The translations under genes were made by a program, and so were the position numbers. The notes beneath the pieces were generated by a model. That model made no database searches. It saw only the letters and a list, made by a program, of their open reading frames with translations, and was not told the origin of the DNA. From Verrucomicrobiota bacterium (lineage in GTDB: Bacteria > Verrucomicrobiota > Verrucomicrobiia > Limisphaerales > UBA8199): a stretch of DNA of 63,654 bases. Below are positions 3,014 to 32,960 of this stretch, piece by piece; positions within the stretch are counted from its first letter, which is position 1, and each line of letters opens with the position of its first letter. The DNA lies in contig JBAXTC010000001.1 in the NCBI GenBank assembly GCA_037130375.1, positions 1 through 63,654 on the forward strand. The letters are read 5' to 3'.

Positions 3014-5079
3014 TCCGCAATCTCTACACGCCCCTGCCGTACACCATCGCGCCCGCCCGAGGGCAGGCTCTCCTCGCCTTCCAGGGCCGTCGGATGCCCG
3101 ACCACCTGCCGCTGTTCGAGACCACCAAGGTCGAGGAAGTCCGACCCGCGAGCCAGACACTTCCGGCCGCTGCGGCGCAGGCGGCGTCAGGCCCCAACCT
3201 CTTGCTGCATGGAGACTGCCTGTCAGCCTGCGCCTACCTCAAAAGTCAGAACATCACAATTGACCTCGTTTACATCGACCCGCCATTCGCCAGCGGCGCA
3301 AATTACGCCAAGAAGATCGCCCTCAGGAATGCCGGCGGAACGGGAATCGAAGGTGCGGACGCCGCAATCGGGGAAGAGATCATGTACGGCGACATCTGGC
3401 AGAAAGAAGACTATCTTAACTGGCTTTACGAGCGCCTGCTGGCAATCCGCGAAGTCATGACCGAGACCGGCTCCATCTATGTCCACCTCGATTGGCACAT
3501 CGGGCCGTATGTCAAGGTTCTGTTGGACGAGGTTTTCGGCGAGGACAACTTCGTCAATGAGATCGTTTGGCAAAGGTTCAACTTCCACGCTGACGCACAG
3601 CGCTTCGGGATAGTCCACGAAACCATCTTCCTCTACGCCAAGACGGAAGACTATCTCTTCAATAAACTATACGTTCCATTTAAGCAGTCCTACATCGAAA
3701 GTCATTTCACAGGAAGAGATCCAGACGGGCGCGTATTCAGGCTGGACAACCCAACGGCACCTTCCCATGGCCGCGAAGGTAATGAGCTAAGGTTTGGCGA
3801 CAAGACCCTTGCGCCCCCCGCTGGCGCTATGTGGCGGTATAGCCAGGAAAATGTGGACAGGCTGATGGCCGAGGGCCGAATCGTATTCACCGGAACAGGC
3901 ATGCCAGCAGTGAAGCGCTACCTGGATGAACTTCCTGGGACGGCGGTTCATACGCTTTGGACCGACATCGACCCTGTAAACTCGCAGGCACAGGAACGGT
4001 TTGATTACGTTACTCAGAAACCCGAAGCCTTGATCGAACGTGTTATCAAAGCATCCTCCAATGAAGGCATGACCATCGCAGATTTCTTCAGCGGCAGTGG
4101 CACAACCGCTGCAACGGCCCACAGAATGGGCCGTCGTTTCATCGCAAGCGACATCGGACAAAACGCCATCCAGGTCTCGCGTGACCGCCTGGCCGCCGCC
4201 GGCGCAACCTTCGACATCCTCAAGATTCAGGACGGTATCCGACTCTTCCGCAACCCAGCCCAAACCGCCGCGAAGATTTTCAGCCTTGTCGAAGGTTTCA
4301 AGAAGCGCGACGATCTCGAACTCGGCGAGTTTTGGGACGGTGGCATCCCCGGACCGTCTGGTCGCTACGTCCCCGTCAAATTCGTTGGCCTCCAAGAGCG
4401 GCTCACACCAGCCCTCCTGGACATGTTCCTCGAAGAAGTTTATCAGCTCGAAACGGACGACCGGGCCGAGGGCATCAAACTCATCTATGCCCACCGAGAC
4501 ATCCAGATCGATCAGCGCTATATCAATCAGCGCCTCCGACAGAGCGGCAAAACCCAGCTCAAAGTCGAACTCATTAGCCTCAACCAACTTCTCGACCGCA
4601 AAGGAGCGAGCCTGTTCACCACCGACAGCGTGGTGGTGGACGTCCAAGCTGCTGGCAGCGAGTGGGATGTTGCAGTCACTCATTACTTCAGTCCCTATCT
4701 CAAGGCGAAGATCGACGAGTTCAACGCCAAGAAAGGCAAACGCAAGGACGCCGAGTTGCTCGAAGAGAATGGAAACGGAGCCGAGAACGGCAACGGCGGC
4801 TCCAACGGCGGCGAGGTGCCCAAGCCAGCCACCCCATTTAAACCGATAGCCATCAGCGAAGCAGGGCTCGAGCTGGTCGAAGCGATCCAGTTCGACACCA
4901 CCCTGCGGCCCGACGGTGTCTGGATTAGCAATTCTGCGCTCGAAGACAAAGCCGGCCCCAAGGAAAAAGTCAGAGGCCGATACCGCCTGCCCGTGAACCG
5001 TTTCAAAATGAAGCTTCGCAACATCGTAGGCGACGAAATTACATTGGAGTTTCCCGCCACAGCGAATGCGGGCACTTGA
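3010..5079 (+). CDS. mod: Type III Mod-like beta-class DNA methyltransferase (N6-adenine/N4-cytosine type)
   Basis: 689-aa ORF. Motif IV 'DLVYIDPPF' (~aa 90) precedes motif I 'ADFFSGSGTTAATAH' (~aa 360), with a variable region between them. After motif I comes a long C-terminal extension containing the low-complexity stretch 'EENGNGAENGNGGSNGGE'. Confidence 0.88.
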   Translation: MIRNLYTPLPYTIAPARGQALLAFQGRRMPDHLPLFETTKVEEVRPASQTLPAAAAQAASGPNLLLHGDCLSACAYLKSQNITIDLVYIDPPFASGANYAKKIALRNAGGTGIEGADAAIGEEIMYGDIWQKEDYLNWLYERLLAIREVMTETGSIYVHLDWHIGPYVKVLLDEVFGEDNFVNEIVWQRFNFHADAQRFGIVHETIFLYAKTEDYLFNKLYVPFKQSYIESHFTGRDPDGRVFRLDNPTAPSHGREGNELRFGDKTLAPPAGAMWRYSQENVDRLMAEGRIVFTGTGMPAVKRYLDELPGTAVHTLWTDIDPVNSQAQERFDYVTQKPEALIERVIKASSNEGMTIADFFSGSGTTAATAHRMGRRFIASDIGQNAIQVSRDRLAAAGATFDILKIQDGIRLFRNPAQTAAKIFSLVEGFKKRDDLELGEFWDGGIPGPSGRYVPVKFVGLQERLTPALLDMFLEEVYQLETDDRAEGIKLIYAHRDIQIDQRYINQRLRQSGKTQLKVELISLNQLLDRKGASLFTTDSVVVDVQAAGSEWDVAVTHYFSPYLKAKIDEFNAKKGKRKDAELLEENGNGAENGNGGSNGGEVPKPATPFKPIAISEAGLELVEAIQFDTTLRPDGVWISNSALEDKAGPKEKVRGRYRLPVNRFKMKLRNIVGDEITLEFPATANAGT

Positions 5080-7855: not shown

Positions 7856-7911
7856 TTCACGCATCACGCATCACGCATCACGCATCACACATCACGCATC
7901 ACGCATCACGC
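7856..7911. repeat. Heptanucleotide tandem repeat (GCATCAC), about 8 units
   Basis: Read directly as 'gcatcac gcatcac gcatcac gcatcac acatcac gcatcac gcatcac gc', between the ccsB stop (7835) and the ccsA ATG (7935). Confidence 0.9.
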
Positions 7912-10139: not shown

Positions 10140-12281
10140 TCACGCCAGGCGGCATCCAGCACAGCCGGCGCCTTTGAGCATGATCGCGCCGGTAGGACAC
10201 ACCTCGGCGGCGCGGCGGGCGGATTTCCGGAGGGCCTCAGCCATGGGTTTGTTGAAGGGCGTGGCTACGCTTACCTGAAATCCACGACCGATAAACGATA
10301 AACCCAGATCCTCGCCTGCTTGTGCCGCCACTTGCACGCAAGCGCCGCACATGATGCACTTGCCCGGCTCGAAGATAATGTCCGGGTGGGATGAGTCGCG
10401 GGCGAAGTAACGTCGTTCGCCGAAAAACCGCCCTGGGTCCACGCCGTATTCGGTCGCAAACTGGCGCAACCGGCAAGGGATCGACTTGCCGCAGCCGCAG
10501 CCGAGGCAGCGCCGAGACTCGCGTCTTGCAGCCTCCGGTGAAAACCCCAGCTCCACTTCGTCGAAGGTCGTCCGTCGCATCTCGATCGCCAGTTGCGGCA
10601 TGGGGGCGCGCGGGGCCTGCTCGATCCCGCGCAGGAAAACCGCCAGCTCGTCTTCGCTGAGTTTCCCCATAAGGACGTTCACCGACTCGGGCGCGCCGAT
10701 CACCTTCTTCCCATTCAGGTATTGGTCGAGAGCCGCTGCCGCAAGCTTGCCGGCGGCCACAGCTCGCACGGCAAGATCCGGGCCGGTCACCCCATCGCCA
10801 CCGGCAAAAACACCGGGAAGGTTGGTCGCTAGGGTCTTTGGGTCGGCCGCAATACCCCATTTAGACAAAGAAAGTCCGGCCGCATTCAGGCAGCTCAATT
10901 CCACATTCTGCCCAATGGCCGAAATCACCGAGGTGGCCTGCACTTCGAACTCCGAGCCGGGCATGGGCACCGGTCGGGCCCGCCCGCTTTCATCAGGCGG
11001 CCCGAGTTCCATTCGCTGGCAAGTCAGGCTCAACTTGCCCTCCTTTCGCTCCAGCCGCACGGGGGCGACGAGGAACTCAATCTTGACACCCTCGGCTTCC
11101 GCGGCTTCCACTTCCTCCATGAGACAAGGCATCTCCTGGCGGGTGCGACGGTAAAGCACCCGCACCGACTTTGCTCCCAACCGTACAGCGCAACGGCTGG
11201 CATCCATCGCGGTGTTGCCGCCGCCGACAACGATGGCATCGCTGCCCACGATTGGCGCCGGTCCGTCGGTGAGCTTTTCGAGAAACTCGAGTGCCGGGGT
11301 GGCCAGTTCTTCGCCACGGCAACCCAGACCGCGAGAACCCTGGGCTCCAATCGCCAGAAACACTCCGTCGAAGTCCCGCCGCAGTTCGTCCAGCGTGATG
11401 TCCCGGCCCAGCTTCTTCCCAAGGTGAAATTTGGCCCCCAACTCGCGTATCATCCCGATCTCCGCATCGAGCACCTGGCGCGGCAACCGAAACGCAGGTA
11501 TCCCATAGCGCAACATCCCACCCGGCTGCGGGTGCGCGTCAAATAGCACTGCGCCATGGCCTCGCCGAAGCAGGTGATGGGCTGCGGCAAGCCCCGCCGG
11601 ACCGGCCCCAACTATGGCTACCCGCTTGCCGGTCGCCGGAGTGAGTGGGACAGGCGTCCCGCCTGTCGCGTCGGGCGTCTCGCCCGCGTTAGCATGCTCG
11701 ATGGCGAGATGCCCTGGTGGCGGGAGGGACGCCCGCCCCACTACCTCGGGGCGCGCACGTTGATAATCGGCCACGAACCGATGAAGGTTGCGAATCGAGA
11801 GCGATTCCTCCACATCACATTGCCGGCAGCGCTCCTCGCAGAGCCTCGGACAGACTCGTCCCAGCGACGCTGGCAGCGTGAGATCGTCTGTCACGATGTC
11901 AGCGGATTTGCGGTGGTCGCCAGCGGCAATCTGTGCGATGAAGTTGGGGATATCCAGCCGGGCCGGGCAACCGGTTCGGCACGGCCCGACGCAGTCGCCC
12001 GCGTGGTCCGAGAGCAGGAGTTCCAGCGAGGTCTTGCGCGCCGCGCGAACCTCCTCCGAGTCATTAATCACGACCATCCCATCGGCTGCAGGCGTGGCGC
12101 AGGACGGCCATAAATTCGGCCGCCCCTCAATCTTAACTGCGCACAAAAAACACGAGGCGGACGGTTCAAAACCCTCGACGTGACAGAGCGTGGGGATGGA
12201 GATTCCCAGCTTGCGCGCAGCGCGGAGGATCGTGGTGCCGGCTGGGACTTCGATTGGACGGCTGTCGATGGTTAGGGTCAT
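10140..12281 (-). CDS. Multi-cluster Fe-S flavoprotein: NuoG/HydA-N-terminal-type Fe-S module with inserted GltD-like NAD(P)H/FAD oxidoreductase domain
   Basis: 713-aa ORF. 2Fe-2S cysteines at C33, C44, C47 and C61. 'SDHAGDCVGPCRTGC' and GltD-type 'RVCPRLCEERCRQC'. Dinucleotide folds 'VAIVGAGPAGLAAA' and 'VVGGGNTAMD', plus 'FAGGD'. C-terminal 'RRCLGCGCG...GKCIMCGACVQV...CPTGAI'. Confidence 0.85.
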   Translation of the reverse strand: MTLTIDSRPIEVPAGTTILRAARKLGISIPTLCHVEGFEPSASCFLCAVKIEGRPNLWPSCATPAADGMVVINDSEEVRAARKTSLELLLSDHAGDCVGPCRTGCPARLDIPNFIAQIAAGDHRKSADIVTDDLTLPASLGRVCPRLCEERCRQCDVEESLSIRNLHRFVADYQRARPEVVGRASLPPPGHLAIEHANAGETPDATGGTPVPLTPATGKRVAIVGAGPAGLAAAHHLLRRGHGAVLFDAHPQPGGMLRYGIPAFRLPRQVLDAEIGMIRELGAKFHLGKKLGRDITLDELRRDFDGVFLAIGAQGSRGLGCRGEELATPALEFLEKLTDGPAPIVGSDAIVVGGGNTAMDASRCAVRLGAKSVRVLYRRTRQEMPCLMEEVEAAEAEGVKIEFLVAPVRLERKEGKLSLTCQRMELGPPDESGRARPVPMPGSEFEVQATSVISAIGQNVELSCLNAAGLSLSKWGIAADPKTLATNLPGVFAGGDGVTGPDLAVRAVAAGKLAAAALDQYLNGKKVIGAPESVNVLMGKLSEDELAVFLRGIEQAPRAPMPQLAIEMRRTTFDEVELGFSPEAARRESRRCLGCGCGKSIPCRLRQFATEYGVDPGRFFGERRYFARDSSHPDIIFEPGKCIMCGACVQVAAQAGEDLGLSFIGRGFQVSVATPFNKPMAEALRKSARRAAEVCPTGAIMLKGAGCAGCRLA

Positions 12282-12310
12282 AGGAAATCCGAAGTCTCGA
12301 AAACCGAAAT

Positions 12311-12652
12311 CTGAAAACCGAAATCCGAAGGAAATCCGAAAACCGAAATCCGAAGCAATATTCGTGCATCAGCATCGTTATTTTCTCCAAATGCCAGAGA
12401 ACGCGAGCGATCTCCTCGCCAAACTGCCCCGTGCGTTCTTCCAATGCCCCGTGGCCAAGTCTTGCCTGCCTCATCCCCCGACTGAAAACCGAAATCCGAA
12501 GGAAATCCGAAAACCGAAATCCGAAGCAATATTCGTGCATCAGCATCGTTATTTTCTCCAAATGCCAGAGAACGCGAGCGATCTCCTCGCCAAACTGCCC
12601 CGTGCGTTCTTCCAATGCCCCGTGGCCAAGTCTTGCCTGCCTCATCCCCCCA
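12311..12652 (-). repeat. Tandem direct repeat, 2 x 171 bp (internally deleted 4HB gene units)
   Basis: 'ctgaaaaccg' at 12311 recurs at 12482, giving a 171-nt period. The units are near-identical by eye. Minus-strand reading: 'MRQARLGHGALEERTGQFGEEIARVLWHLEKITMLMHEYCFGF'. This is the 4HB N-terminus fused to the last codons and 3' tail of the gene. Confidence 0.85.
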
Positions 12653-12801
12653 CCTCCAGAACTCGAAGCCCTCGCATGGCGTTTCCTGGCACAATGTCCA
12701 TTCGGCCTTCGGATTTCGGATTTCCTTCGGTTTTCGGTTTTCGGTTTTCGGATTTAAGACGGTCATAGGAAATCCGAAGCAGTATTCGCGCATCAGCATC
12801 G

Positions 12802-13170
12802 TTATTTTCTCCAAATCGCGCCGAAAATGAGATTCAGCTCTTTGGCCTCGCGCCAGAGAACGCGAGCTTCGGCAGCCAGGTTTTCCTGTGCAGTAGCGAC
12901 CATGCGAAGGAAGAACATGGTTTCCCGAGACTCTTTGCGGCAAGTGCCAATCCGATGCTTGAAATCTTTCCCGGAAACAGAGTTGTCTGCCTCGCAGAAA
13001 TTCGCCCCCACGCTCGTTCCAGCGCCCACAAGCTGATCAATGAGTCGGTTGGTGACCGGATTCTGCGGGATCTTCTTCACAAACCGTATGATCGCCTCGC
13101 CAAACTGCGCCGTGCGTTCTTCCAAGCCCCGTGCCGGAGTCTTACCTGCCGCTCCTTCCCTCAGCGCCAT
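12802..13170 (-). CDS. Four-helix-bundle protein (23S rRNA intervening-sequence protein / Avd family)
   Basis: 122 aa from ATG 13170: 'MALREGAAGKTPARGLEERTAQFGEAIIRFVKKIPQNPVTNRLIDQLVGAGTSVGANFCEADNSVSGKDFKHRIGTCRKESRETMFFLRMV...LIFGAIWRK'. Typical length and motifs (GxSxGANxxEA, KDFxHxxxxxxKEsxET) for this family. Confidence 0.8.
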   Translation of the reverse strand: MALREGAAGKTPARGLEERTAQFGEAIIRFVKKIPQNPVTNRLIDQLVGAGTSVGANFCEADNSVSGKDFKHRIGTCRKESRETMFFLRMVATAQENLAAEARVLWREAKELNLIFGAIWRK

Positions 13171-13252
13171 CGGTTCCGTACCCACCTCATCCCCCCAGCT
13201 CCAGAACTCGAAGTCCTCGCATGACGTTTCCTGGCACATTGTCCGTTCGGCC

Positions 13253-13352
13253 TTCGGATTTCGGATTTCGGATTTCGGATTTAAGATAGTCATGGCAAAT
13301 CCGAAGTCTCGAAAACCGAAATCCGAAGGAAATCCGAAATCCGAAATCCGAA
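13253..13352. repeat. Inverted heptamer arrays able to form a long imperfect hairpin
   Basis: Left arm (TTCGGAT)n at 13253-13283 faces right arm (AAATCCG/AAAACCG)n at 13297-13352 across 'aagatagtcatggc'. Confidence 0.75.
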
Positions 13353-13374
13353 ACAGTATCCGTGCATCAGCATC

Positions 13375-13523
13375 GTTATTTTCTCTAAATCGCGCCGAAA
13401 ATGAGCTTTAGCCCTTTGGCATCGCACCAGAGAACGCGAGCAATCTTCTCGCCAAACTGCCCCGTGCGTTCTTCCAATGCCCCGTGCCGGAGTCTTGCCT
13501 GCCGCTCCTTCCCTCAGCGCCAT
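13375..13523 (-). pseudogene. Frameshifted, internally deleted four-helix-bundle gene copy
   Basis: Starts 'MALREGAAGKTPARG'. A 1-nt insertion follows (ggggcATTGGAAGAACGC versus ggggcTTGGAAGAACGC in the intact copy). The remnant reads 'LEERTGQFGEKIARVLW/CDAKGLKLIFGAI*', so the central helices are missing. Confidence 0.6.
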
Positions 13524-14004
13524 CAGTTCCGTGCCCACTTCATCTCCCCACCTCCAGAACTCGAAGCCCTCGCATGACATTTCCTCGCACAATGTCCGTT
13601 CGGCCTTCAGTTTTCGGATTTCCTTCGGTTTTCGGTTTTCGGATTTCGGATTTCCTCGTGCGTAACCTGCCGCTCCTTCCCTCAGCGCCATCAGTTCCGT
13701 ACCCACCTCATCCCCCCACCTCCAGAACTCGAAGCCCTCGCATGACATTTCCTCGCACAATGTCCGTTCGGCCTTCAGTTTTCGGATTTCCTTCGGTTTT
13801 CGGTTTTCGGATTTCGGATTTCCTCGTGCGTAACCTGCCGCTCCCTCCCTCAACGCCATCAGTTCCGTGCCTACCTCATCCCCCCACCTCCAAAATTCTA
13901 AGTCCTCACATGACATTTCCTCGCACAATGTCCGTTCGGCCTTCGGATTTCGGATTTCGGATTTCGGATTTCCGCCTTCGGTCTTCAGATTCCCTCGCGC
14001 GTAA
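13501..14004 (-). repeat. Tandem direct repeat, 3 x 168 bp (4HB 5' region + first 9 codons + heptamer array)
   Basis: 'gccgctcc' occurs at 13501, 13669 and 13837. Copies 1 and 2 differ at about 3 positions by eye; copy 3 is diverged. Each unit contains '...FEFWRWGDEVGTELMALREGAAG' on the minus strand. The array abuts the stop codon of the NuoEF gene. Confidence 0.85.
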
Positions 14005-14005
14005 T

Positions 14006-16444
14006 TCATACCACCTCCACAGCATCCTGCGGACAAACCTGCCGGCACGAATCGCACCGGGTGCATTTCTCCAAGTCAATCACATGCCGCGCGTAGGGCG
14101 TCATCGGGATCGCGTTGACCGGGCAATGCTGGGCGCAAATCGTGCAGCCGGTGCAGTTCTCGCGCACGCGATACTTGATGAGCGCCGTGCATTTTCCAGC
14201 CGGGCAACAACCCTGAAGATGCGCTTCGTATTCGTCGCGGAAATATCGCAGCGTGGTGAGCACCGGGTTGGGCGCGGTCTTGCCGAGTCCGCACAAACTT
14301 CCCTGGCTCACCTGCGGCGCCAGTTGCTCCAATTCCTGCAGGTGATGGCGGGTGGCTTTGCCTTTGCAGAGACGGTTGAGCAGCTCGAGCATCCGCTTGG
14401 TGCCGATGCGGCAGAAGGTGCATTTGCCGCAGGACTGGTTCTGAGTGAATTGGAGGAAATAACGGGCGATATCGACCATGCAGGCCGTGTCGTCCAGCAC
14501 CACCATGCCGCCCGAGCCCATGATCGCGCCGATGGCCCGCAGCGACTCGAAGTCCACCGGCGTGTCGGCCAGGCGCGCCGGCACACAACCGCCCGATGGC
14601 CCTCCGATCTGCACCGCCTTGAACTTTCGGCCGGCAGTCACTCCGCCACCAATCTCTTCAACGATCTGGCGGAGCGTCGTGCCCATCGGAATCTCGATCA
14701 GCCCGGCCCGGCGCACTTTGCCGGCCAGGGCGAACACCTTGGTGCCTTTGCTGGCCGCCGTACCGATGCTGGCGAATGCCTCCCCGCCGTGCCGGAGAAT
14801 CCAGGGCGTCATGGCCAGGGTTTCGACGTTGTTGATCAACGTAGGCTTGCCCCACAAACCGGATTGCGCCGGGAACGGCGGACGCAAGCGCGGCATGCCG
14901 CGGCGGCCTTCCACCGACGCAATCAGCGCCGTCTCCTCTCCGCATACGAAAGCACCCGCCCCTTCCTTGATCGTGATCCGCAATGGGTAATCACTTCCCA
15001 TGAGCCTTTTGCCCAGCCATCCGCGCAGCTCACACTCGGCGAGAGCGGCTCGCACACGCCACAATGCCTGCGGATATTCGTGGCGGATGTAGAAAACGGC
15101 TTCGTGCGCGCCCACCGCCACCGCGGCAATGGCCAGCCCTTCGATAACCCGATACGGGAAGGATTCGAGAATCATCCGATCCATGAACGCTCCCGGGTCG
15201 CCCTCATCGCCGTTGCAGATCACATATTTGATTGGCTCGGGCTGCTGGCGAACGATGCGCCATTTTTGTCCCGTGGGAAAGCCGGCGCCACCCCGGCCGC
15301 GCAGGCCGGATTGTTCCATAGTTTTGATGATGGCTTCGGGGGTGAACTTAGCGCAGGTTTCCAAAACTGCCGAGCCCTCCCCACTTTGAACTTCGGACTT
15401 CGCACTTCCCACTTCCAGGCAGCTCCTCAAGGCCACAAAGCCATCGTGAGCAAGGTATTCATCCAGGTCCAGAGGGTCGAGCCGCCCATAGTGCTCCATG
15501 GCGATGTGGACTTGCCGGCGGAAAAACTCGCGCTCTCCCGCAACATCCGCGCTCTGCATCCGGGTCGCGCCCGGAGTCGCCGAGGTCTCATCGTCCAGCA
15601 GCAATCCGTCCATCGCCCGTCTCCAGAGCTCTGACGCGCGCCGCACGAGGCCAACAGGGCGAAAATGCGACCGCACCAGATTGCCAACTTCGGCCAGCGC
15701 CAGCCCGGTGTAAGTCGCACTCGACTTGCCCGACGTAACAACCTCGACCATCGGCGTGAGATAGCAAGCCCCGACACAGCCGACACGCTTGACGGTAGCG
15801 TTCGCGCCGCTTGTCGCGACACTCTGCCGCAGAGCCTCGAACACGCGGTCGGTTCCTTTCGCCAAACAGCACGAGTCGAGGCAGACTTTGATCTCGGCGG
15901 CACCGGGGCTGGGAGCACGAGTGCCGGGCGGGGAATTCCAAGACGGCACGTTTGTTTCCGCACCAGACAAGTTCCGGCGGCTGGCCAGAAAGTCGCGGAT
16001 CGTGGCCGGCACCTTCTCGGCGGCCGCGTAACCAACGGTTTCTTCGCCAATCCGCACCACGGGAGCGAGGGTGCAGCACCCAAGGCAAGCGACGGGTTCG
16101 ATGGTGAATTGCCGATCGGCATCGGTGTCCGCGCCATCGGGAATGCGTAAATGACGGCGCAGGGCGTCTTCGACACGTTCGGCGCCTCCGACGTGGCAAG
16201 CCGTGCCATGACAGACATGCACGATATGTTCCCCCACAGGCTCGTGCCGGAACATGTCGTAGAAGGTTGAAACCCCGGCAAGGGCCGCGGGTGTGATTTG
16301 TGTCGCTGCGCAAATGCGTCGCAAGACCTCCTCCGGCAGGTAACCGTAATGATCCTGCATGGCCTGAAGAATCGGGATGACGGCATCGGGGCTGCGCCCA
16401 ATCCGTTCAACCGCCTCATCCACGAATCTCAGATCAATTGCCAT
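14006..16444 (-). CDS. NuoE-NuoF (HydC-HydB-type) fused NAD(H)-binding FMN/Fe-S flavoprotein
   Basis: 812 aa from ATG 16444 ('MAIDLRFVDEAVERIG'). NuoE-like 'CHGTACHVGG...CLGCCTLAPVV' and a second thioredoxin-like 2Fe-2S 'CLDSCCLAKG...CVGACYLTPMV'. NuoF core 'GLRGRGGAGFPTGQKW', 'ICNGDEGDPGAFMDR' and 'SCGKCTFCRIG'. Two C-terminal CxxCxxCxxxCP motifs. Confidence 0.9.
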   Translation of the reverse strand: MAIDLRFVDEAVERIGRSPDAVIPILQAMQDHYGYLPEEVLRRICAATQITPAALAGVSTFYDMFRHEPVGEHIVHVCHGTACHVGGAERVEDALRRHLRIPDGADTDADRQFTIEPVACLGCCTLAPVVRIGEETVGYAAAEKVPATIRDFLASRRNLSGAETNVPSWNSPPGTRAPSPGAAEIKVCLDSCCLAKGTDRVFEALRQSVATSGANATVKRVGCVGACYLTPMVEVVTSGKSSATYTGLALAEVGNLVRSHFRPVGLVRRASELWRRAMDGLLLDDETSATPGATRMQSADVAGEREFFRRQVHIAMEHYGRLDPLDLDEYLAHDGFVALRSCLEVGSAKSEVQSGEGSAVLETCAKFTPEAIIKTMEQSGLRGRGGAGFPTGQKWRIVRQQPEPIKYVICNGDEGDPGAFMDRMILESFPYRVIEGLAIAAVAVGAHEAVFYIRHEYPQALWRVRAALAECELRGWLGKRLMGSDYPLRITIKEGAGAFVCGEETALIASVEGRRGMPRLRPPFPAQSGLWGKPTLINNVETLAMTPWILRHGGEAFASIGTAASKGTKVFALAGKVRRAGLIEIPMGTTLRQIVEEIGGGVTAGRKFKAVQIGGPSGGCVPARLADTPVDFESLRAIGAIMGSGGMVVLDDTACMVDIARYFLQFTQNQSCGKCTFCRIGTKRMLELLNRLCKGKATRHHLQELEQLAPQVSQGSLCGLGKTAPNPVLTTLRYFRDEYEAHLQGCCPAGKCTALIKYRVRENCTGCTICAQHCPVNAIPMTPYARHVIDLEKCTRCDSCRQVCPQDAVEVV
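15383..15416. repeat. Heptamer-repeat-like segment inside the NuoEF coding sequence
   Basis: 'cttcggacttcgcacttcccacttcc' resembles the (GGACTTC)n arrays. It encodes '...GSAKSEVQSGEG...' in the linker just before the NuoF core. Confidence 0.55.
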
Positions 16445-16446
16445 GA

Positions 16447-16602
16447 CGTAAAACCCGAAACCCGAAACCCGCAACAAACTCAAAACACGCAGGCTCGAAT
16501 GTTCCCGGCCTCTTGGCGCTCGCTGGTATTGAATTTCGGATTTCAGTCATTCCAGTCATTCGGATTTCCTTCGGACTTCAGGTTTCGGACTTCGGATTTC
16601 CC
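16447..16602. repeat. Inverted heptamer arrays between the PQQ-like and NuoEF genes
   Basis: (CCCGAAA)3 at 16447-16470 faces (GGATTTC/GGACTTC/GGTTTC)n at 16531-16602. The latter array supplies the last codons of the upstream gene. Confidence 0.8.
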
Positions 16603-18313
16603 CAACACACCACATATTCGTCACCCCGCGCATATAGAGCTTATCTGCTGCGAACGCCGGGCTGGCGTGGAATGCATCGCCCATTTCCGTCCGGAACAGC
16701 TCTTTGAACTGCCGCGCGGCTTCGACCACAACCGCCGTTCCCTTCTGGCTGAGCAGGTAAAGCCGCTTCCCGGCCAGGATCGGCGACGCGTGGCATTCCA
16801 TGTCGAAGTCATGTTCCCAGAGTTTCTTCCCGTCTTTGGCGTCGTAACACGTCAGCATGCCCGAGGTGGTGACAGAAAAAACCAGCTCGCCGTTGCTGGT
16901 TGGACTGGTTACGTCCGGAATGTTGTCTTCGTTGGTCCACGCAACATGGGTCTTGGTGACGTCGCCTTGCCCGTCCGGCCGAATCGCCAGCAACTTCTCT
17001 GACGGGCTGGCCACGAACAGCATTCCGCCGGCGAAGACCGGTGACGGAGTGATTTCACCATTGAGACAGGTCACCCGCCAAAGCTCCACGCCATTAGTGG
17101 CGGCGTAGGCGATCACCCACGGCACGGCGAGCACAACCACCTGGGCTTTGCCGGCAGCCTCGTAAACAATGGGCGAGGCCCAGGATCTGCCCACCTTGCG
17201 CGGGCGCTCCCAGACGGTTCGACCGGTGCGCCCGTCCAGCGCGTAGAGCTTCGATTTGCCTTCATCAGGATCACCCTGGTCGAGCTGCACGATCAACCGG
17301 TCCCGCCAGGTCGCCAGCGACGTGGCGGCTCCATAGGGATTCTTTAAGACGCCAAAACTCTTTGACCAAACCGGCTTCCCATCCAGAGTGAATGCGACGC
17401 AGTCGCCATTCGCAAAAAACGCATACACCCGCCGACCATCCGTCGCCATCGTCGATGCGGCGTAACCTGTGGACTCGGGAATATCCGCTCCCTGCACTGT
17501 GCCCGGAACATTCGTCACCGCCTGCCGCCAGAGCGTTTGACCTGTCTTGGCGTCCAGACAAAAAACCTCGCGCAGGTTCGTGTTGCCGCCCGAAAAGAAG
17601 ACACGGTCCCCCCAGACAATCGGCGAATTGAAACCACCGGCTGGCACGGGAACCTTCCAGGCAATCCCCACGCCAGTCTTCGTATCCCAACTCACGGGCG
17701 CATTGGTTGCGCCTGACACGCCGCCTCCGTCCACTCCGCGAAAACAAGGCCAGTTTGCTCTGAGTTCTTCAACCGAGGCAGCATCCGTGGACATCACGGA
17801 ACCAGCCGAGCCTAACATCTTTTCCGCATCTGCCGGAGCTTTTGGCAAAGCCGTGCTCAGCCCAAGACTCAGAATAAAAAGAAACGTGCCGATCACCCCG
17901 CCGCTGGCCGCCACCGACCAGCGGGCCGTAGCCGCCCCGCAAGCGGTCGATTCCGCGCCATCCGGTTTGGGTCCGGGTGACGGCAGCCGCCTCCGATGAC
18001 GAGCGCTCTGTGTGGCAGCCAGCACAAACACGGCAACTCCACCAAGCAACAAATAGACCCCCGATCCCATCTGCGACAATTGGCGGAAATACTGTTGGCG
18101 GAGCTGCAAATCGAGGGCCCGAATCCGCTCCTTCATCTGTTCATCCGCCGGGTTTAGCCGGAGCTTTTCTTTGTACTCTTTGAGCAACGGCGATTTGAGC
18201 GGATCCTCGGCCCGCGTGCCGAAGTGGCCAACGACCATCGCTACGCCGGCCAATAGCGAGAAGACCCCGGCAATCCACGCCGTCAGCCGCCAGGTGGAGT
18301 TGGTGTTACTCAT
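16556..18313 (-). CDS. Membrane-anchored PQQ-like (BamB-type) beta-propeller repeat protein
   Basis: 585-aa ORF with three N-terminal hydrophobic helices. These are followed by repeated 'VFCLDAKTGQTLW', 'LYALDGRTGRTVW', 'VIAYAATNGVELW' and 'MLTCYDAKDGKKLW' blades. The start overlaps the upstream stop by 8 nt. Confidence 0.75.
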   Translation of the reverse strand: MSNTNSTWRLTAWIAGVFSLLAGVAMVVGHFGTRAEDPLKSPLLKEYKEKLRLNPADEQMKERIRALDLQLRQQYFRQLSQMGSGVYLLLGGVAVFVLAATQSARHRRRLPSPGPKPDGAESTACGAATARWSVAASGGVIGTFLFILSLGLSTALPKAPADAEKMLGSAGSVMSTDAASVEELRANWPCFRGVDGGGVSGATNAPVSWDTKTGVGIAWKVPVPAGGFNSPIVWGDRVFFSGGNTNLREVFCLDAKTGQTLWRQAVTNVPGTVQGADIPESTGYAASTMATDGRRVYAFFANGDCVAFTLDGKPVWSKSFGVLKNPYGAATSLATWRDRLIVQLDQGDPDEGKSKLYALDGRTGRTVWERPRKVGRSWASPIVYEAAGKAQVVVLAVPWVIAYAATNGVELWRVTCLNGEITPSPVFAGGMLFVASPSEKLLAIRPDGQGDVTKTHVAWTNEDNIPDVTSPTSNGELVFSVTTSGMLTCYDAKDGKKLWEHDFDMECHASPILAGKRLYLLSQKGTAVVVEAARQFKELFRTEMGDAFHASPAFAADKLYMRGVTNMWCVGEIRSPKPEVRRKSE

Positions 18314-19691
18314 TCAATGCCTTTGCCGGTTGAAGGTTGGCAGCGGGCATCATGCCGCGCCGCACTAATTCGTTCGGACAATACTCGAAGCATCGCGCGC
18401 AGGCGAAACAATCGCCGCGATCCGGCTCGTAATCGGTTCGCTTGCGGCGCAACGAGAGACTGATCAATTTCACGCCGATCACCAGCCCGGCCCACATCCC
18501 GAAAATCGTGGCCCCCGCGACGAACCGTTCCCGAATGCGCCCCGCCTCGGTGAGAATCTCCTGCGGTGTCTGGCGGGCGCGTTCCAGCGCCAGCTCATCT
18601 GGTGACAGCGCGCCAAACTTGAGAGCGGTTCCCTGCGCCCGCACGAACTGCTCCGCAAGGCTAACCGTCGGATTGAGCTTGGATGCCACCGGGCCAAATC
18701 GCCATCCCAGCCAGCCGCCGCCGGCGATAAGCACGGGAAGCAGCGCCAGCAGCAGCGCCAGCCGCCGGCGGTCTCCGGTGAGAGCCTGCGGCGACGCCCC
18801 GCCGGTTGCGGGCTCGCGCATCGCGCCAAACGGACACGAAGCTTCGCATAACCGGCATTGCGTGCAATAATCCGGCGTTACCCGGACGCGCCATTTCGCA
18901 ACCGTCGCGCCCAGTTTCAACAGCGCTCCATAAGGACAGAGAAACCGGCAGTAGGGCCGGCCTACGAAGACCCCCAGCAGGAGCAGCGCCACCCCGGACA
19001 GCACCATCAACGTCCGCCCGCTCATCCGAAAAATGGGCACGAATGGATCGTATTGGCAGATAATAAATGCGCTGCCGGTCGCCGCAAACAGCACGCCCGC
19101 GCCCAGGTAAATGTAAGGCAGCACACTCAACCCCTGCTCAAGCCACAACGGCACCTTCAACGGCTTCAATAACACCAGATCCTGCAGCGCGCCATGCGGG
19201 CAGACCCCGGCGCAAAAAGTCCGCCCGGCAAAGAGCGCAAAGACCAGGGGCAGCACGAAGAAAGCGACCACGCCAACGGGAACGGCATACTCCCGATCAA
19301 ACACCGCAAGCGCGACGTTTTGCACCGAGCCAATCGCGCAGACACACCCTTTTCGCCAGAATCCGAAATACACCAGTGAAAAAATCGAAAGCGCCATCAC
19401 GCCGTTGCGCGAACGCCGCTTGAATACCAGCCAGCTTGACACCCCCAGGCAGACCGCCAACACCACAACATCGAGATATTGAAAAAACAGCGCCCGCGCC
19501 GCTGGGGTCGTCGTGACCGGAAGCTGATGTCCACTCTCAAATTCCGGCGGTGGAAAACGCTGCTCTGCGATGGCAATGCTGGAAAGAAAGGCAAAAAACA
19601 ACAGCGGACCGAGCATCCAGACCAACCCGCTCCACAAGCCGGCCGTCGCGCTCTGGACTTCGGACTTCGGACTTCGGACTTCGGGTCTCAT
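18306..19691 (-). CDS. NapH/MauN/NosR-type membrane polyferredoxin
   Basis: 461 aa from ATG 19691, which overlaps the upstream stop (ATGA). Multiple TM helices. Two CxxxCP loops, 'GRTFCAGVCPHGALQD' and 'GRPYCRFLCPYGALLK'. Two 4Fe-4S motifs, 'CTQCRLCEASCP' and 'CFACARCFEYCP'. Confidence 0.75.
   Translation of the reverse strand: MRPEVRSPKSEVQSATAGLWSGLVWMLGPLLFFAFLSSIAIAEQRFPPPEFESGHQLPVTTTPAARALFFQYLDVVVLAVCLGVSSWLVFKRRSRNGVMALSIFSLVYFGFWRKGCVCAIGSVQNVALAVFDREYAVPVGVVAFFVLPLVFALFAGRTFCAGVCPHGALQDLVLLKPLKVPLWLEQGLSVLPYIYLGAGVLFAATGSAFIICQYDPFVPIFRMSGRTLMVLSGVALLLLGVFVGRPYCRFLCPYGALLKLGATVAKWRVRVTPDYCTQCRLCEASCPFGAMREPATGGASPQALTGDRRRLALLLALLPVLIAGGGWLGWRFGPVASKLNPTVSLAEQFVRAQGTALKFGALSPDELALERARQTPQEILTEAGRIRERFVAGATIFGMWAGLVIGVKLISLSLRRKRTDYEPDRGDCFACARCFEYCPNELVRRGMMPAANLQPAKALNE
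19655..19688. repeat. (GGACTTC)x4 heptamer array inside the first 15 codons of the NapH-like gene
   Basis: 'ggacttcggacttcggacttcggacttcgggtctc' encodes 'MRPEVRSPKSEVQSA' on the minus strand. Confidence 0.85.
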
Positions 19692-20260
19692 GTTCCGTGG
19701 ATCGTCGTCTTCAGCAAATACGGCTGATCTGCCGGCACGCGGCGGAAGGCATCTCCGGCGCAAACTTTCGAAATGGCGCATTCGTTGCAATTCACGCAGC
19801 GGTCGTGACGCACTTGCAGAAACAGCGAGCCGTTGCCGAAACGATTGCAGCCTTCGACACACTTGGCGCACCCGATGCAGAGTTGCTCGTCAATCGTGTA
19901 TTCGTAATACGGATCCTCGACAAACGTGCGCTTGATCGCAGAAGTAGGGCACAGGCAATTCTCCGCGCCGGTGTTCAGGTCGTTGGGCTCCGGATCGAAG
20001 TAGCCCGTGCAAAGCTGGCAATAACCGCAGATCGCAAAGGAATGAACACACTTGACCGCGGATTGCTCGAGCACGCAATTCGTCGCGCAATTGCCGCAGC
20101 GCACGCATTTCTGAGGATCGATTTGCCAAACGGCCCCTTTGGCGGTGGCGCGGCCCGCCACCACCCCCAGCAAACCTCCCAGCCCCGTCAGCGCCGCCGC
20201 CCGCGCGCCGTCGCGCAGAAACTGGCGGCGGCTAACATTTGGCTCAGGTTTGGAATCCAT
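19688..20260 (-). CDS. Tat-exported NapG-like 4x[4Fe-4S] ferredoxin
   Basis: 190-aa ORF with twin-arginine signal 'SRRQFLRDGARAAALTGLG'. Four Cys clusters: 'CVRCGNCATNC', 'CGYCQLCTG', 'CIGCAKCVEGC' and 'CVNCNECAISKVC'. Confidence 0.8.
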   Translation of the reverse strand: MDSKPEPNVSRRQFLRDGARAAALTGLGGLLGVVAGRATAKGAVWQIDPQKCVRCGNCATNCVLEQSAVKCVHSFAICGYCQLCTGYFDPEPNDLNTGAENCLCPTSAIKRTFVEDPYYEYTIDEQLCIGCAKCVEGCNRFGNGSLFLQVRHDRCVNCNECAISKVCAGDAFRRVPADQPYLLKTTIHGT

Positions 20261-20269
20261 CTGCGGCCC

Positions 20270-21340
20270 TTAAGCGCTGGGCTTGGTTGCTGGCGTTGCT
20301 GCCGTCTCTTTCTTTTTCGCCATCACGCGGACCTCGCCGGTAACGAGATCGAGAATGTATATGCGCTGTTGCGAATCCACCGCGGCATCCAAACCGCCCA
20401 TCGTGCAGTCCGCCGGGGAACACTTGTGCCAATTCTCTGTGAACGACTCCGGCCCGGCAACCACGCATTCGAAGGTTCCGTCGCCGGAGTAAACCTTCAC
20501 CCGGGGCAGACCCTTTTCGCACGTAACACAACGACCGTCCGGCAGCAGGGCCAGACCGACCGGGTTGCAGCACCCGCAGAAGCCCTGGATCGCGCCGGAA
20601 GGCTTGCCCCAAAAGAATTCCAGGTCACCACCCGCGGTGTAGCCTTCCACCCGATGCCGCCCCGGATTGTTGACCCGCACTAGCCCGTCGCGACCCAGTT
20701 CCACATCGAGGTAGGGGCTGGGCACGATCAGACCGGGAACGTTGCGGTCCTTGTTCTTCTCGGCGATACGGCCAGCCAGCTTGCCGGATTTATCGTACCG
20801 CAGCACCACCCGGTTCCCCGCATCAGCCGCAAAGACGTCATTCTCCCCCACCGCCAGCCCCGTAAACCAAGTCCGCTTGCCGGGCGATTCCCAGGCCGCG
20901 GTTCGCTGGCCTTTGCGATCAAACACCTCCAGATGGTCCTTCAGCCCCGCATAAATAGTTCCGTCGCCTGCCACAGCGACACAACGCGCCGAACCGGCAA
21001 GCGCAATCTCATTGACCCTCGCCCCCTGGCGGTCCAGCACGCTCACGTAGTTGCCCGCAGCAACATACACTTGATTCTCCGGCCCGATCGCAATCCGGTG
21101 CGGCTCCGGTTGCGAGGTGGGAAAACGGCCCACTTGTTCGTAATGGATCAGCTTCGGGTCGGTCTGGCGCAACCGCTCCACGTCGTACGCAAATGGGTTG
21201 GCTTCCTTGCCCGCGCTGCCCGCGCCTGCCCGTCGCGTCGAAGCCACCACAGCGGCGCTGCCCACGGCGAGAACTCCGGCGCTGCGCGCGCTTTTCTGGA
21301 TGAAGTGGCGTCGGGTAATGGGTCGGTTCTGGTTTCTCAT
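20270..21340 (-). CDS. Tat-signal NHL/six-bladed beta-propeller protein with Cys-rich C-terminal blades
   Basis: 356 aa from ATG 21340 ('MRNQNRPITRRHFIQKSARSAGVLAVG'). NHL-like repeats ('VYVAAGNYVSVLD', 'DVFAADAGNRVVLRYD'). Cys cluster 'GFCGCCNPVG...GRCVTCEKG...FECVV...CSPADC'. Confidence 0.7.
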   Translation of the reverse strand: MRNQNRPITRRHFIQKSARSAGVLAVGSAAVVASTRRAGAGSAGKEANPFAYDVERLRQTDPKLIHYEQVGRFPTSQPEPHRIAIGPENQVYVAAGNYVSVLDRQGARVNEIALAGSARCVAVAGDGTIYAGLKDHLEVFDRKGQRTAAWESPGKRTWFTGLAVGENDVFAADAGNRVVLRYDKSGKLAGRIAEKNKDRNVPGLIVPSPYLDVELGRDGLVRVNNPGRHRVEGYTAGGDLEFFWGKPSGAIQGFCGCCNPVGLALLPDGRCVTCEKGLPRVKVYSGDGTFECVVAGPESFTENWHKCSPADCTMGGLDAAVDSQQRIYILDLVTGEVRVMAKKKETAATPATKPSA

Positions 21341-21348
21341 GGTCAACC

Positions 21349-21570
21349 TCAATGTTGAGCGTATTTTGCGGAAAGTGCCGGCGGCAGGCCGCAACTGGCA
21401 AAGACACCGCAGCCGCTGCAGATGCCGCGATTCACGCAGCTTTGGCGCGACGACATTCGGCGGCGCATCGCCAGGCCGCCCGCGGCGGTCAGCAGCGTCA
21501 GCAGACCATAGCGCGCCGCAGCACGAACAAACTCGCGCCGGCTTTCAACCTTTTCAGGCGAAAATTGCAT
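21349..21570 (-). CDS. Small (73 aa) twin-arginine-signal protein with CX5CX2CX5C tail
   Basis: 'MQFSPEKVESRREFVRAAARYGLLTLLTAAGGLAM...SCVNRGICSGCGVFASCGLP'. Ends 8 nt before the NHL gene start, with GAGG in the spacer. No family recognised. Confidence 0.5.
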   Translation of the reverse strand: MQFSPEKVESRREFVRAAARYGLLTLLTAAGGLAMRRRMSSRQSCVNRGICSGCGVFASCGLPPALSAKYAQH

Positions 21571-21750
21571 AGCGATGTGGCTGAAATATAACGGAAAAAG
21601 GATTCCCTGCCACAGCAAAAGCAGCTACATCCGTTTTGCCAAACACCAACCCTATTTTGTCCGCCCGATGGCTGAATCTGTCAGATCCCGAACCGGCCTC
21701 TTACCTCGCTGAAAAGTTCGCGCATATCGCCGTGGACACCCTCCTCTCCC

Positions 21751-22557
21751 TTACTTCTTATAAGTTGTTCCTTCTGCGATCCAGGTAATGTCCCGCTTGT
21801 CCGAGCCGGTGTCCATCGGAATGCCGTCCACGTTCCCCATAACCGGTCGTTTTGTTACTGTAGCCATCCATTTCTTGATTTCGGCGTGGCCGTCGGCGAA
21901 CGAGAAGCCGCAAGCGCCGTTGTGATAGGAAGCTGGAATGTCACACCAGGTCCACCGCTCGCTTGGGTCGGCACTGGTACACCAAACGTACCAACCGTCG
22001 TTAATGCTGTCGGGATGTTCATCCAAGGTGACAAAGATGGCGGAAGGAGTTCTGAAGCTGCTGCCCTTTATGAACTGCTGCCAGATGTAGTTGATCGGCG
22101 TTCCCTTGTCGTCCTGTGGACCGACAAATGCGTTCATGGAAATGCTCCTCGCTCGCGGTCCCAGTGGACACGGCTTTTGATCGGCTGGACATTTATAAAT
22201 GCCAGTGTTCTTGGCAACATAAGGCCCCAACAGCGCCCCTTTTATTAGATCCAGGTTCGTGTTTTGTGAATCGGCACCCCAACTAATAACGTTACCCACC
22301 CAGTTATTGCTGGGATTGCCTTGCGTGCCCAGGATAGTTCTGTTGTTGACCAAGCGATCGTTGAAGTCATCGGCATACATACGCCAGGCCAGTATGAGCT
22401 GTTTGTTGTTGTTCAGGCACATGATGCCCTGCGCTTTGGTCTTGGCCTTGGCCAGCGCAGGCAACAATAGCGCAGCCAGAATGGCAATGATTGCAATGAC
22501 GACGAGCAGTTCAATCAGGGTGAACGCTCCATTCTTGCAACGAAGAAGAAATCTCAT
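21751..22557 (-). CDS. Prepilin-type N-terminal methylation domain / DUF1559 H-X9-DG protein
   Basis: 268 aa from ATG 22557. '[33 protein letters not shown]', 'IYKCPAD', and C-terminal '[13 protein letters not shown]' (H-X9-DG). Confidence 0.9.
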
Positions 22558-32714: not shown

Positions 32715-32960
32715 CGCAGGGCAGGGCAGCCGAGACGCCCCGGAGCGTGGAGCAGGTCTCCGACTCCGTGCGGAATTGTTGACTCGGGTTTGGACAGGAG
32801 ATAACAGAGATAACGGAGAGTTGTCGAACCCAGAAGCGAGGGAGCGCCGGCTAAAGCCGGCTTTGGACGACCGAGGAGCAATATCCTTAGGGGCAGGAGG
32901 TGCGGTGTAAGCCGGCTAAAGCCGGCGCTCCGGGGCGTGCCTCCCCAGAGTGAGACTTGC
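32715..32960. repeat. Cluster of REP-like fragments and a 23-nt inverted repeat
   Basis: Partial REP core 'gcaggtctccgactccgtgc' at 32752-32772. 'gagcgccggctaaagccggcttt' (32842-32864) is inverted at 32908-32930. Tail 'cctccccagagtgag' resembles the REP A/B ends. Confidence 0.7.

Follow-up and report, generated by a model that had tools for sequence, protein, structure and literature searches.

Mirrored heptamer arms around a four-helix-bundle gene at an operon junction in Verrucomicrobiota, and their likeness to the intervening sequences of 23S rRNA

Introduction

Some bacterial 23S ribosomal RNAs (rRNAs) harbor intervening sequences (IVSs) that contain an open reading frame (ORF) for a small protein, S23p. 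Such ORF-bearing IVSs are also found in Leptospira and Brucella, and the function of the S23p/IVS protein and the origin of the rRNA IVSs are questions that are more than 30 years old. In this report we deal with a gene of the same family in a stretch of DNA of 63,654 nt from a Verrucomicrobiota bacterium (contig JBAXTC010000001.1, assembly GCA_037130375.1), the whole of which is referred to as the window. Between a gene for a NuoE-NuoF fusion (NuoEF) and a flavoprotein gene, at positions 12282-14005, the window holds a nest of intact and broken copies of a cassette in which a four-helix-bundle (4HB) gene is associated with heptamer arrays in mirror orientation.

The closest described system is the IVS in helix 45 of the Coxiella burnetii 23S rRNA, in which an S23p ORF is flanked by terminal inverted repeats; these pair into a stem of 28 bp that is cleaved by RNase III (PMC4990558). 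In this element the start codon is preceded by AGAAGA and three tandem heptamers (GACAGAT), strains differ in how many heptamers they carry, one strain has a 176-bp internal deletion of the ORF, and the ORF is reported to be decaying and probably untranslated (PMC4990558). ORFs of the 23S_rRNA_IVP type also occur in 16S and 23S insertions of the candidate phyla radiation (CPR) (10.1101/2024.02.27.582315). Eighteen 23S_rRNA_IVP genes are known from cas loci, for example in Pleurocapsa between cmr3 and cmr2 with gaps of 86 and 6 nt, a position that was interpreted by its authors as a functional association with Cas nucleases (PMC3936711). The same fold and superfamily encompass Avd, the accessory protein of diversity-generating retroelements (PMC10053308). 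Among repeat families, the Correia/NEMIS elements of Neisseria and the ERIC elements of Yersinia are short inverted repeats inserted between co-transcribed genes, whose mRNA hairpins are cut by RNase III or alter stability (PMC10969869). The STRR repeats of heterocystous cyanobacteria and the GGGAATC repeats of Xanthomonas and Nostoc are length-variable intergenic tandem heptamers that lie near ORF ends among co-oriented genes (PMC4692102).

The nest and its four-helix-bundle gene

We consider it reasonably probable that the gap represents a locally amplified and partly decayed cluster derived from one ancient 4HB cassette of the IVS type, which would be co-transcribed with its operon, fold into stems through its arms and relay ribosomes from one host gene to the next. 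The nest is composed of an intact 4HB gene, three copies with internal deletions, two further copies of the gene's 5' leader and mirror-oriented heptamer arrays, and the minus strand is common to all of its units and to both host genes. In gene orientation, (GAAAWCC)n is found 5' of each unit and (GGWTTTC)n 3' (Tandem Repeats Finder (TRF), sequence). Over the aligned blocks the units share 91-97% identity with the intact copy, and the inverted pairs measure 43-56 nt with a complementarity of 87-93%. Indeed, 24 of the 25 longest inverted repeats of the window, counting arms up to 700 nt apart, fall in this 1.7 kb.

Read from the NuoEF end, the nest begins with an ATGA (14006..14009) in which the TGA stop of NuoEF overlaps the ATG of a long reading frame, ORF-a; this overlap is shared by 7 of 11 orthologous loci. 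The 5' heptamer arm of leader module 1, (GAAATCC)n, lies at 13935..13991, and that of leader module 2, recovered by TRF, inverted-repeat search and predicted fold, at 13767..13822. A 168-nt (56-codon) tandem repeat extends over 13498..13958 (2.7 copies, 95% matches, TRF score 831), and each unit consists of a 5' heptamer arm and a leader coding for ...FWRWGDE...LREGAAG. There follows a frameshifted and internally deleted copy, Psi1 (13294..13665), which by block alignment is 92.5% identical to the intact copy, carries a 1-nt insertion (GGGGCATTGG) and has lost the equivalent of intact positions ~13095-12868; it keeps a full 5' arm (13599-13654), the leader, the first ~16 and last ~21 core codons and a full 3' arm (13297-13353). 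The intact gene is a 163-aa ORF (12802..13293) that includes its own translated 5' arm (13246..13282), and beyond it stands an 11-nt remnant (TTCGGATTTCC) of its 3' arm (12769..12779). Psi2 (12482..12768) is a more deeply deleted copy with arms at 12701-12755 (5') and 12484-12525 (3'). It opens with ATGACCGTCTTAA, which duplicates the beginning of the unit/junction, and is 91.7% identical to the intact copy, with the same 1-nt insertion and the same deletion junction as Psi1. Finally, Psi2' (12282..12481; block alignment, tandem repeat) is a partial tandem duplicate of Psi2 that lacks a 5' arm and closes with the terminal 3' arm of the nest (12284-12354), right next to the flavoprotein ATG at 12281. 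The deleted units register as a 171-nt (57-codon) tandem repeat at 12311..12650 (TRF; 2.0 copies, 100% identical), and the host junction is itself repeated at the unit borders (..TTTCCTATGACC..).

A preliminary description of this DNA had reported the same features within 12282-14005, with the polarity of the host genes, and the repeat finder, the profiles and the sequence bear it out, as TRF does for its tandem arrays of the 5' region. The intact gene that it gave as 122 aa is real, 122 aa being the length counted from an internal Met at 13170, but homologues place the N-terminal extension, and in this lineage also the array, inside the ORF. Its three deleted copies are all present, although the third is a duplicate of part of the second, and its pairing of heptamer arrays on both sides of the units needs correction for the intact copy, where the 3' arm is a remnant.

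The protein is a four-helix bundle of the S23p/Avd family (PF05635/TIGR02436). The intact ORF scores 35.1 bits with PF05635 (cut-off 33.8) and 48.8 bits with TIGR02436 (cut-off 24), and the family profile matches PDB entry 2RLD (E = 4.7e-8). An AlphaFold2 (AF2) monomer model places the helices at residues 57-72, 79-101, 108-135 and 137-162, with a core pLDDT of ~55-90 per 10-residue block, whereas residues 1-53, including the translated 5' arm, form a disordered extension. With this model Foldseek retrieves 2RLD (TMt 0.83), 2GSC (0.77) and Avd, 4DWL (0.63). The N-terminal extension (residues 1-56, 13126-13293) is conserved in Verrucomicrobiota and displays translated heptamers (NPKSEIRNPKE), (D/E)xxFWxWGD(E/D) and LxLRE. 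The intact gene is under strong purifying selection, with a median dN/dS of 0.078 for the 4HB core among orthologues at saturated dS. The protein has no match in PADLOC or PHROGs; binding to the arm repeats is the role that we favor, as a speculation.

Origin of the nest and residence of the cassette

Judged from its sequence, the nest appears to be a lineage-specific tandem amplification with decay and not a set of separate insertions. Psi1 and Psi2 are copies of one broken ancestor because they have a common 1-nt insertion and deletion junction, and this sharing, together with unit borders that copy the host junction, argues for local tandem amplification. The nest may have been born of unequal exchange or slippage between the repeated arms, with retention of only the in-frame products (168 = 3x56 nt, 171 = 3x57 nt). 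The same neighborhood was recovered in four other assemblies from different samples (L001-L004), and the nest is found in all four. In comparison to the window, L001 has one 168-nt and one 171-nt unit fewer, L004 has one 171-nt unit fewer, and L003 has one additional, sequence-diverged 171-nt unit; the exact copy number is uncertain or polymorphic between assemblies.

When the flavoprotein and the 4HB ORF were used as protein queries, the nearest 4HB homologues turned out to share contigs with flavoprotein orthologues. In three relatives whose flavoprotein is 81-83% identical (L085, L086 and L087), the gap measures ~600-670 nt and contains a single 4HB gene bordered by both a 5' arm and a 3' arm, and the NuoEF/flavoprotein junction with a cassette is also found in eight GTDB genomes. 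A further relative, L088 (GCA_936414465.1, 78% identical; 3856-4003), has a 141-nt gap with no 4HB gene, in which (TCTCAAA)x4 and a degenerate 5' array survive alongside the overlapping ATGA; this gap is a relic of cassette loss and not a pristine empty site. When the 4HB cores are grouped by junction class, identity is 73% within classes versus 67% between them, and the nearest neighbor is of the same class in 40 of 57 cases, while paralogues inside one metagenome-assembled genome (MAG) are only 56-73% identical. The presence of a single cassette at orthologous junctions, the low dN/dS with saturated dS and the clustering by junction class therefore indicate that the cassette is an old, vertically inherited resident of the NuoEF/flavoprotein junction and a functional gene. 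The preliminary description had proposed both a comparison of the locus among relatives and a check of the assembly. The former yields a single cassette in three relatives and a relic in the fourth, the latter a nest that recurs in four independent assemblies with variable copy number. Its idea of proliferation and repeated targeting is not supported, since relatives carry one cassette and a single frameshift and a single deletion junction are common to the broken copies.

Mirror arms and junction sites in other genomes

The family was surveyed in 80 loci from species-representative genomes of Verrucomicrobiota, Planctomycetota, several Patescibacteria, Caldithrix and others. Folding of the 230-nt flanks as RNA duplexes was dropped because the energies were governed by length, and local alignment against shuffled sequences was used instead. 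By this measure the flanking inverted repeat exceeds the maximum of 385 shuffles in 76 of the 77 usable loci. The arms are ~55 nt long and are made up of about four heptamers, an 11-mer with AAAGAA or GAAGGAA and two or three further heptamers. The heptamer varies by lineage (GAAATCC, GAAGGCC, GAATGAC, GACTAAT, CCCAAAC, CTAATTA), both arms of a locus always match, and in most loci the landmark is mirrored, with ...AAAGAA... on one side and ...TTCTTT... on the other. In the best register 32.8 of 42 positions match, falling to 21-22 at a shift of +-7 and to 24.4 after permutation of the heptamer blocks, and on account of this fall the arms are taken as true mirror copies and not as arrays of the same consensus. 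Within 300 nt of the 4HB genes, period-7 arrays also reach 7.7 times the density that they have in the remainder of these loci. Mirror arms around the 4HB ORF are thus a cross-phylum trait.

The cassettes recur at the junctions NuoEF/flavoprotein, bacterial microcompartment (BMC) shell/EutN-like, DUF1553-like/DUF1501-like and gmhA/gmhB and in a hydantoinase operon, and a crude ORF heuristic places both neighbors on the strand of the cassette in 45 of 73 loci. A search of plasmids found only cyanobacterial relatives, 33% identical to the query, and two of these plasmid 4HB genes (L089, L090) show the mirror-arm layout. The gene on a Nostoc flagelliforme plasmid lies between (AATTCAA)4 and (TTTTGAA)4, and that on Anabaena cylindrica pANACY.01 (L089 1000-1780) is located on the opposite strand between cas2 and cas1 and has GTAAAAA-type arrays on both sides. 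The tie between the 4HB gene and inverted heptamer termini that the preliminary description had noticed is therefore family-wide and not peculiar to this locus, and its placement of the cassettes at operon junctions is confirmed for cistron junctions, mostly with co-oriented neighbors. Eight Patescibacteria loci (L037, L052, L058, L062, L065, L067, L074, L079) have cores that are 61-68% identical to the query over residues 57-163; they belong to AT-rich genomes and have AT-rich heptamer arms of the CTAATTA type.

The arms are also found without the gene. In the BMC operons of L005 (2400-3460), L012 (4480-5600) and L014 (4460-5450), heptamer-arm hairpins of ~130-150 nt occupy nearly every junction, and these ORF-less versions have the same arms with a short GC-rich loop. 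In the window, an ORF-less heptamer pair is located at the junction between a pyrroloquinoline quinone (PQQ)-propeller gene and NuoEF (16434..16600, minus strand), with a 5' arm centered on GAAGGAAATCCG and a short (GGGTTTC)3 as the 3' arm. The PQQ gene reads into the 5' arm and ends at an ATGA, from which a 41-codon ORF crosses the element and shares 11 nt with the beginning of NuoEF. In L087, the counterpart of this element (776-882) is bounded by an ATGA on either side. Hairpins of this kind, built from the same arms, accord with the termini resembling those of a miniature inverted-repeat transposable element (MITE) that had been proposed from the window.

Proposed co-transcription, RNA stems and translation

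The cassette would have no promoter or terminator of its own and would be co-transcribed with its operon, as is suggested by the lack of promoter-like or terminator-like sites in 12000-14300. In the transcript, each 5' arm would pair with a 3' arm to give stems of 38-55 bp. In the predicted folds the arms of Psi1 pair over 53-55 bp (z = -7.1) and those of Psi2 over 38 bp (z = -4.4), and a predicted outer stem of 54 bp, between the arm of leader module 2 and the terminal 3' arm (13764-13822 with 12299-12358), closes the nest. The arms of the single-copy L085 cassette pair in both the minimum free energy and the centroid fold (z = -4.6), and an ORF-less hairpin of L005 reaches -76 kcal/mol (z = -6.6), its predicted base bringing the upstream ATGA next to the downstream ATGA. 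Such stems would be substrates for RNase III, by analogy with the Coxiella IVS and the Neisseria Correia elements, and would also mask the downstream start.

The whole insert is spanned by three reading frames. ORF-a (13290..14009, minus strand, 239 codons) runs through leader modules 1 and 2 and Psi1, and at its end an ATGA (13290-13293) combines its TGA with the start of the intact 4HB ORF. Gene callers predicted it in L002, with 239 aa, and in L001, with 183 aa. ORF-c (12278..12799, minus strand, 173 codons), of which a 116-aa version is called in L004, runs through Psi2 and Psi2'. Its ATG lies 2 nt past the 4HB stop (TAAcgATG) and its TGA overlaps the flavoprotein ATG (ATGA 12278-12281), so that the joints read ATGA, ATGA, TAAcgATG and ATGA. 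Over the span of ORF-a its frame is free of stops, whereas the two remaining sense frames contain 15 and 5 and the three antisense frames 5, 4 and 1; the frame of ORF-c is likewise free of stops over its span, against 3 and 6 (sense) and 2, 2 and 1 (antisense). A first-order Markov model gives the stop-free frames probabilities of 2e-4 and 6e-3, which become less extreme once the redundancy of the repeats is allowed for. Since the three joined ORFs cover the insert, ribosomes could pass to the flavoprotein gene: those leaving NuoEF would translate or re-initiate through the insert, a relay that would keep the two host genes translationally coupled, as at the original ATGA junction. In keeping with such a relay, an ATG is found at, or within 11 nt after, the 4HB stop in 53 of 82 loci as compared to 19% of control windows, the downstream gene begins with ATGA in all class-A loci, and several ORF-less hairpins are exactly spanned by ATGA...ATGA ORFs of 48-60 codons. 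In the BMC operons, several hairpins are crossed by an ORF that begins at an ATGA on the preceding stop and closes with an ATGA or GTGA on the following start.

A number of points weigh against the reading of the nest as a co-transcribed, stem-forming and translated IVS-type cassette. The intact copy has only the 11-nt remnant for a 3' arm and, when folded alone, its unit fails to pair arm with arm (z = +1.0). The comparison was made with the 80 loci nearest to the query and not with a random sample of PF05635. The scan of 12000-14300 for sigma-70 promoters and intrinsic terminators found no sites with an E. coli-type consensus, which may not suit Verrucomicrobiota, and RNase III processing at this locus is put forward purely by analogy. 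The arms mismatch at ~18% of positions, with 114 G.U against 143 A.C pairs; as there is no excess of G.U, covariation cannot separate an RNA stem from concerted evolution or a terminal inverted repeat (TIR) function at the level of DNA. Of the 53 ATGs close to the 4HB stop, 34 are just AAA-TGA, a Lys codon and a stop. From the 4HB stop to the downstream start, the three frames are stop-free in 11, 11 and 9 of 11 single-copy orthologous loci, and with all three frames open there an open bridging ORF was rejected as specific evidence for a relay in these loci. Nor could a relay be universal, given that 5' arms of the GAATGAC type and the AT-rich arms of the CPR hold stop codons.

Alternative explanations

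The nest might be thought a product of short-read assemblers that made or expanded the tandem structure, considering that 100%-identical 171-nt units are difficult to assemble and that MEGAHIT and SPAdes contigs differ in copy number. Because four independent assemblies from different samples carry the nest this is barely conceivable, all the more so as an error of collapse or expansion would create neither the 3-9% divergence among the units nor the diverged additional unit of L003. It is improbable, if less extremely so, that the arrays are ordinary slippage simple sequence repeats in intergenic DNA, among which the 4HB gene merely lies with no functional tie. Heptamer repeats of this sort are over-represented in the intergenic DNA of some bacteria (PMC4692102), 98 arrays are found away from 4HB genes in 507 kb of flanks, and the window has further arrays at 16450-16600, 19655-19684 and 7857-7911. 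Yet one arm mirrors the other in both its succession of variant heptamers and its 11-mer landmark, arrays are enriched beside 4HB genes, the layout is found in 76 of 77 loci from at least four phyla whatever the heptamer, and the Coxiella rRNA IVS is described with the same layout. A role for the protein as an accessory subunit or regulator of a NuoEF-flavoprotein enzyme, for which it would be conserved in the operon with the repeats incidental, would explain a gene that is kept at this junction across the clade under purifying selection. This is very improbable all the same, as near-related 4HB genes with the same arms occupy BMC shell/EutN-like, gmhA/gmhB, DUF1553-like/DUF1501-like and cas2/cas1 junctions, the hydantoinase operon and CPR loci, and L088 keeps both enzyme genes after loss of the 4HB gene.

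An active family of DNA transposons or MITE-like elements deserves more weight, although we still regard it as unlikely. The arms would then be TIRs for a recombinase that is encoded elsewhere or aided by the 4HB protein, ATGA would be targeted and duplicated, and the nest would reflect insertions at a hotspot. The arms are mirror copies of defined length with an internal landmark, the ORF-less versions are MITE-like, and many unrelated types of junction are occupied. An ATGA stands at both borders in the window and in 14 of the 80 loci, within 34 nt of the right border in 38 (11% background) and at the left border in 22 (9% background), where it coincides with start and stop codons and is further confounded with the GAATGAC heptamer. 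Cores that are 62-68% identical between Verrucomicrobiota and CPR or Planctomycetota point to horizontal spread, the identity with the CPR being unusually high for a comparison across phyla. On the other hand, gene calls and Pfam reveal no transposase or integrase within +-10 kb (L001, L002), the 63.6-kb window has no second copy of the cassette, and no relatives were found in phage GenBank or IMG/VR. The exact 22-mer at the invariant 3' end of the unit (GAGAAAATAACGATGCTGATGC) gave 0 matches in the scanned GTDB representative genomes and 0 in JGI contigs, which is weak evidence, as the JGI scan missed L004. Furthermore, the orthologous position has been retained though dS is saturated, paralogues within a MAG are only distantly alike, and the nest units have a common deletion junction. 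Taken together, the unrelated junctions, the cross-phylum identity of the core and the border excess of ATGA suggest mobility in the past, and a 4-bp ATGA target-site duplication is possible. Of the selfish cassette that had initially been proposed, the inverted termini and the junction sites stand, but recent proliferation is not supported, in view of the divergent paralogues and the single window copy. An integron attC cassette was also considered and rejected, with arms on both sides, tandem heptamers and no integrase within +-10 kb (core sites judged by eye).

Host genes and other features of the window

The upstream host gene (14006..16483, minus strand) encodes the NuoE-NuoF fusion with a C-terminal 2x[4Fe-4S] (di-cluster ferredoxin) domain. 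It is 825 aa long from a TTG or 812 aa from the ATG at 16444 that the gene callers chose in L001 and L002, and it matches 2Fe-2S_thioredx, Complex1_51K, NADH_4Fe-4S and Fer4 in Pfam and nuoF_fam and NuoE in NCBIfam. The downstream gene (10140..12281, minus strand; Pfam, NCBIfam) encodes a 713-aa 2Fe-2S / GltD-like FAD/NAD(P) oxidoreductase with a C-terminal ferredoxin domain, and the identical protein is found on 6 contigs. With Rfam no rRNA match was found in 11500-17000, the element being situated between two protein-coding genes and not in a 23S or 16S helix. The only Rfam signals were sub-threshold plant and insect miRNA-precursor models (MIR5512, MIR7504, mir-981), far below gathering scores, at 13234-13359; these are spurious and are caused by the long perfect hairpin between the 3' arm of Psi1 and the 5' arm of the intact copy.

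Elsewhere in the window, at 19655-19700 (minus strand), an ATGA stop/start overlap is directly followed by (GAAGTCC)x4, which codes for the N-terminal residues of the next gene product (MRPEVRSPKSEVQS...); a 3' partner for this array was not observed. On the plus strand, (TCACGCA)x7.9 at 7857-7911 (95% identity) lies 24 nt upstream of a CcsA-like cytochrome-c assembly gene that starts at 7935. Two unrelated hairpins are found at 48014-48094 (26-nt arms, AGTAGGGCAGGCGTCCCGCCTACCCC, 29 nt apart) and 32841-32931 (23-nt arms, GGAGCGCCGGCTAAAGCCGGCTT, 45 nt apart). In L001, beyond the cytochrome-c biogenesis genes (17203-22079), a gene for an N6_N4 DNA methyltransferase (689 aa) is followed by a 936-aa gene without a Pfam hit, and the two may form a restriction-modification or defense pair.

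Wider significance

A broader proposal, which we advance tentatively and regard as rather doubtful, is that the 23S IVSs, STRR-type arrays and the 4HB genes in cas, BMC and redox operons form one cross-phylum class of junction elements that persist within operons by virtue of being translationally transparent and on whose arms the 4HB protein acts. In such elements the folded arms would bring the upstream and the downstream ATGA together where the stem closes, ribosomes would be carried over by a spanning ORF or by re-initiation, and the protein would work on the arm repeats in mobility or RNA processing. If the IVS class does live at operon junctions under purifying selection, mRNA would offer a tractable model of the IVS, in which cleavage, coupling and the binding of protein to repeats are simple to assay. 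The class would also be a candidate explanation of why intergenic heptamer repeats are over-abundant in several phyla. Because a PF05635 gene seems to occupy many unrelated operon junctions, guilt-by-association readings of members of this family as linked to Cas proteins, diversity-generating retroelements or enzymes may be wrong. There is, in addition, a practical warning for work with MAGs, as nests of this kind break short-read assemblies and yield spurious ORF calls of translated repeats.

Comparison with known systems

No open-access paper was found on a link between 4HB genes and mirror heptamers outside rRNA, on junction cassettes or on spanning ORFs, in a search that left subscription journals mostly uncovered. 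The ORF-less heptamer hairpins resemble Correia and ERIC elements in position and size. The arms of the latter, however, are unique sequence with no 4HB ORF, and they are present in many near-identical copies per genome, which is not shown for the heptamer cassettes. To our knowledge, ATGA-to-ATGA spanning ORFs are not a described feature of Correia or ERIC elements. The arrays that border the Nostoc plasmid 4HB gene are reminiscent of STRR and GGGAATC repeats. These are described as single arrays and read as G-quadruplex or slippage products, unlike the heptamer arms, and in searchable papers neither a mirror partner nor a 4HB link is reported for them. The 4HB gene of L089, between cas2 and cas1 with its heptamer arrays, recalls the 23S_rRNA_IVP genes of cas loci, which may likewise be occupants of operon junctions rather than partners of Cas.

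The protein shares its fold with Avd, as found by Foldseek (4DWL), but is closer in sequence to S23p (2RLD), and the repeats of the nest are tandem or inverted copies of units, in contrast to the adenine-mutagenized pairs of the Avd context. A diversity-generating retroelement was rejected, with no reverse transcriptase and no pair of template and variable repeats within +-10 kb (L001, L002).

The likeness to the 23S IVS is the most extensive. In both, a PF05635 ORF is sense to the host transcript and has complementary termini, which here form a predicted stem, and in both the heptamer number varies and internal ORF deletions and ORF-less versions exist. As in Coxiella, compared here by its published description only, a purine-rich AGAAGA/AAAGAA and tandem heptamers come before the start codon. 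The differences are that the arms at the present locus are ~55 nt and almost all heptamers, as against a 28-bp stem, that the units are amplified in tandem, that RNase III cleavage has been shown for the IVS and is an analogy here, and that the 4HB gene is under strong purifying selection, unlike the Coxiella ORF. The host site is moreover the stop/start junction of protein genes and not a helix of rRNA. On the reading favored here, the cassette is the same kind of element as the ORF-bearing 23S rRNA IVS, situated at the stop/start junction of an operon.

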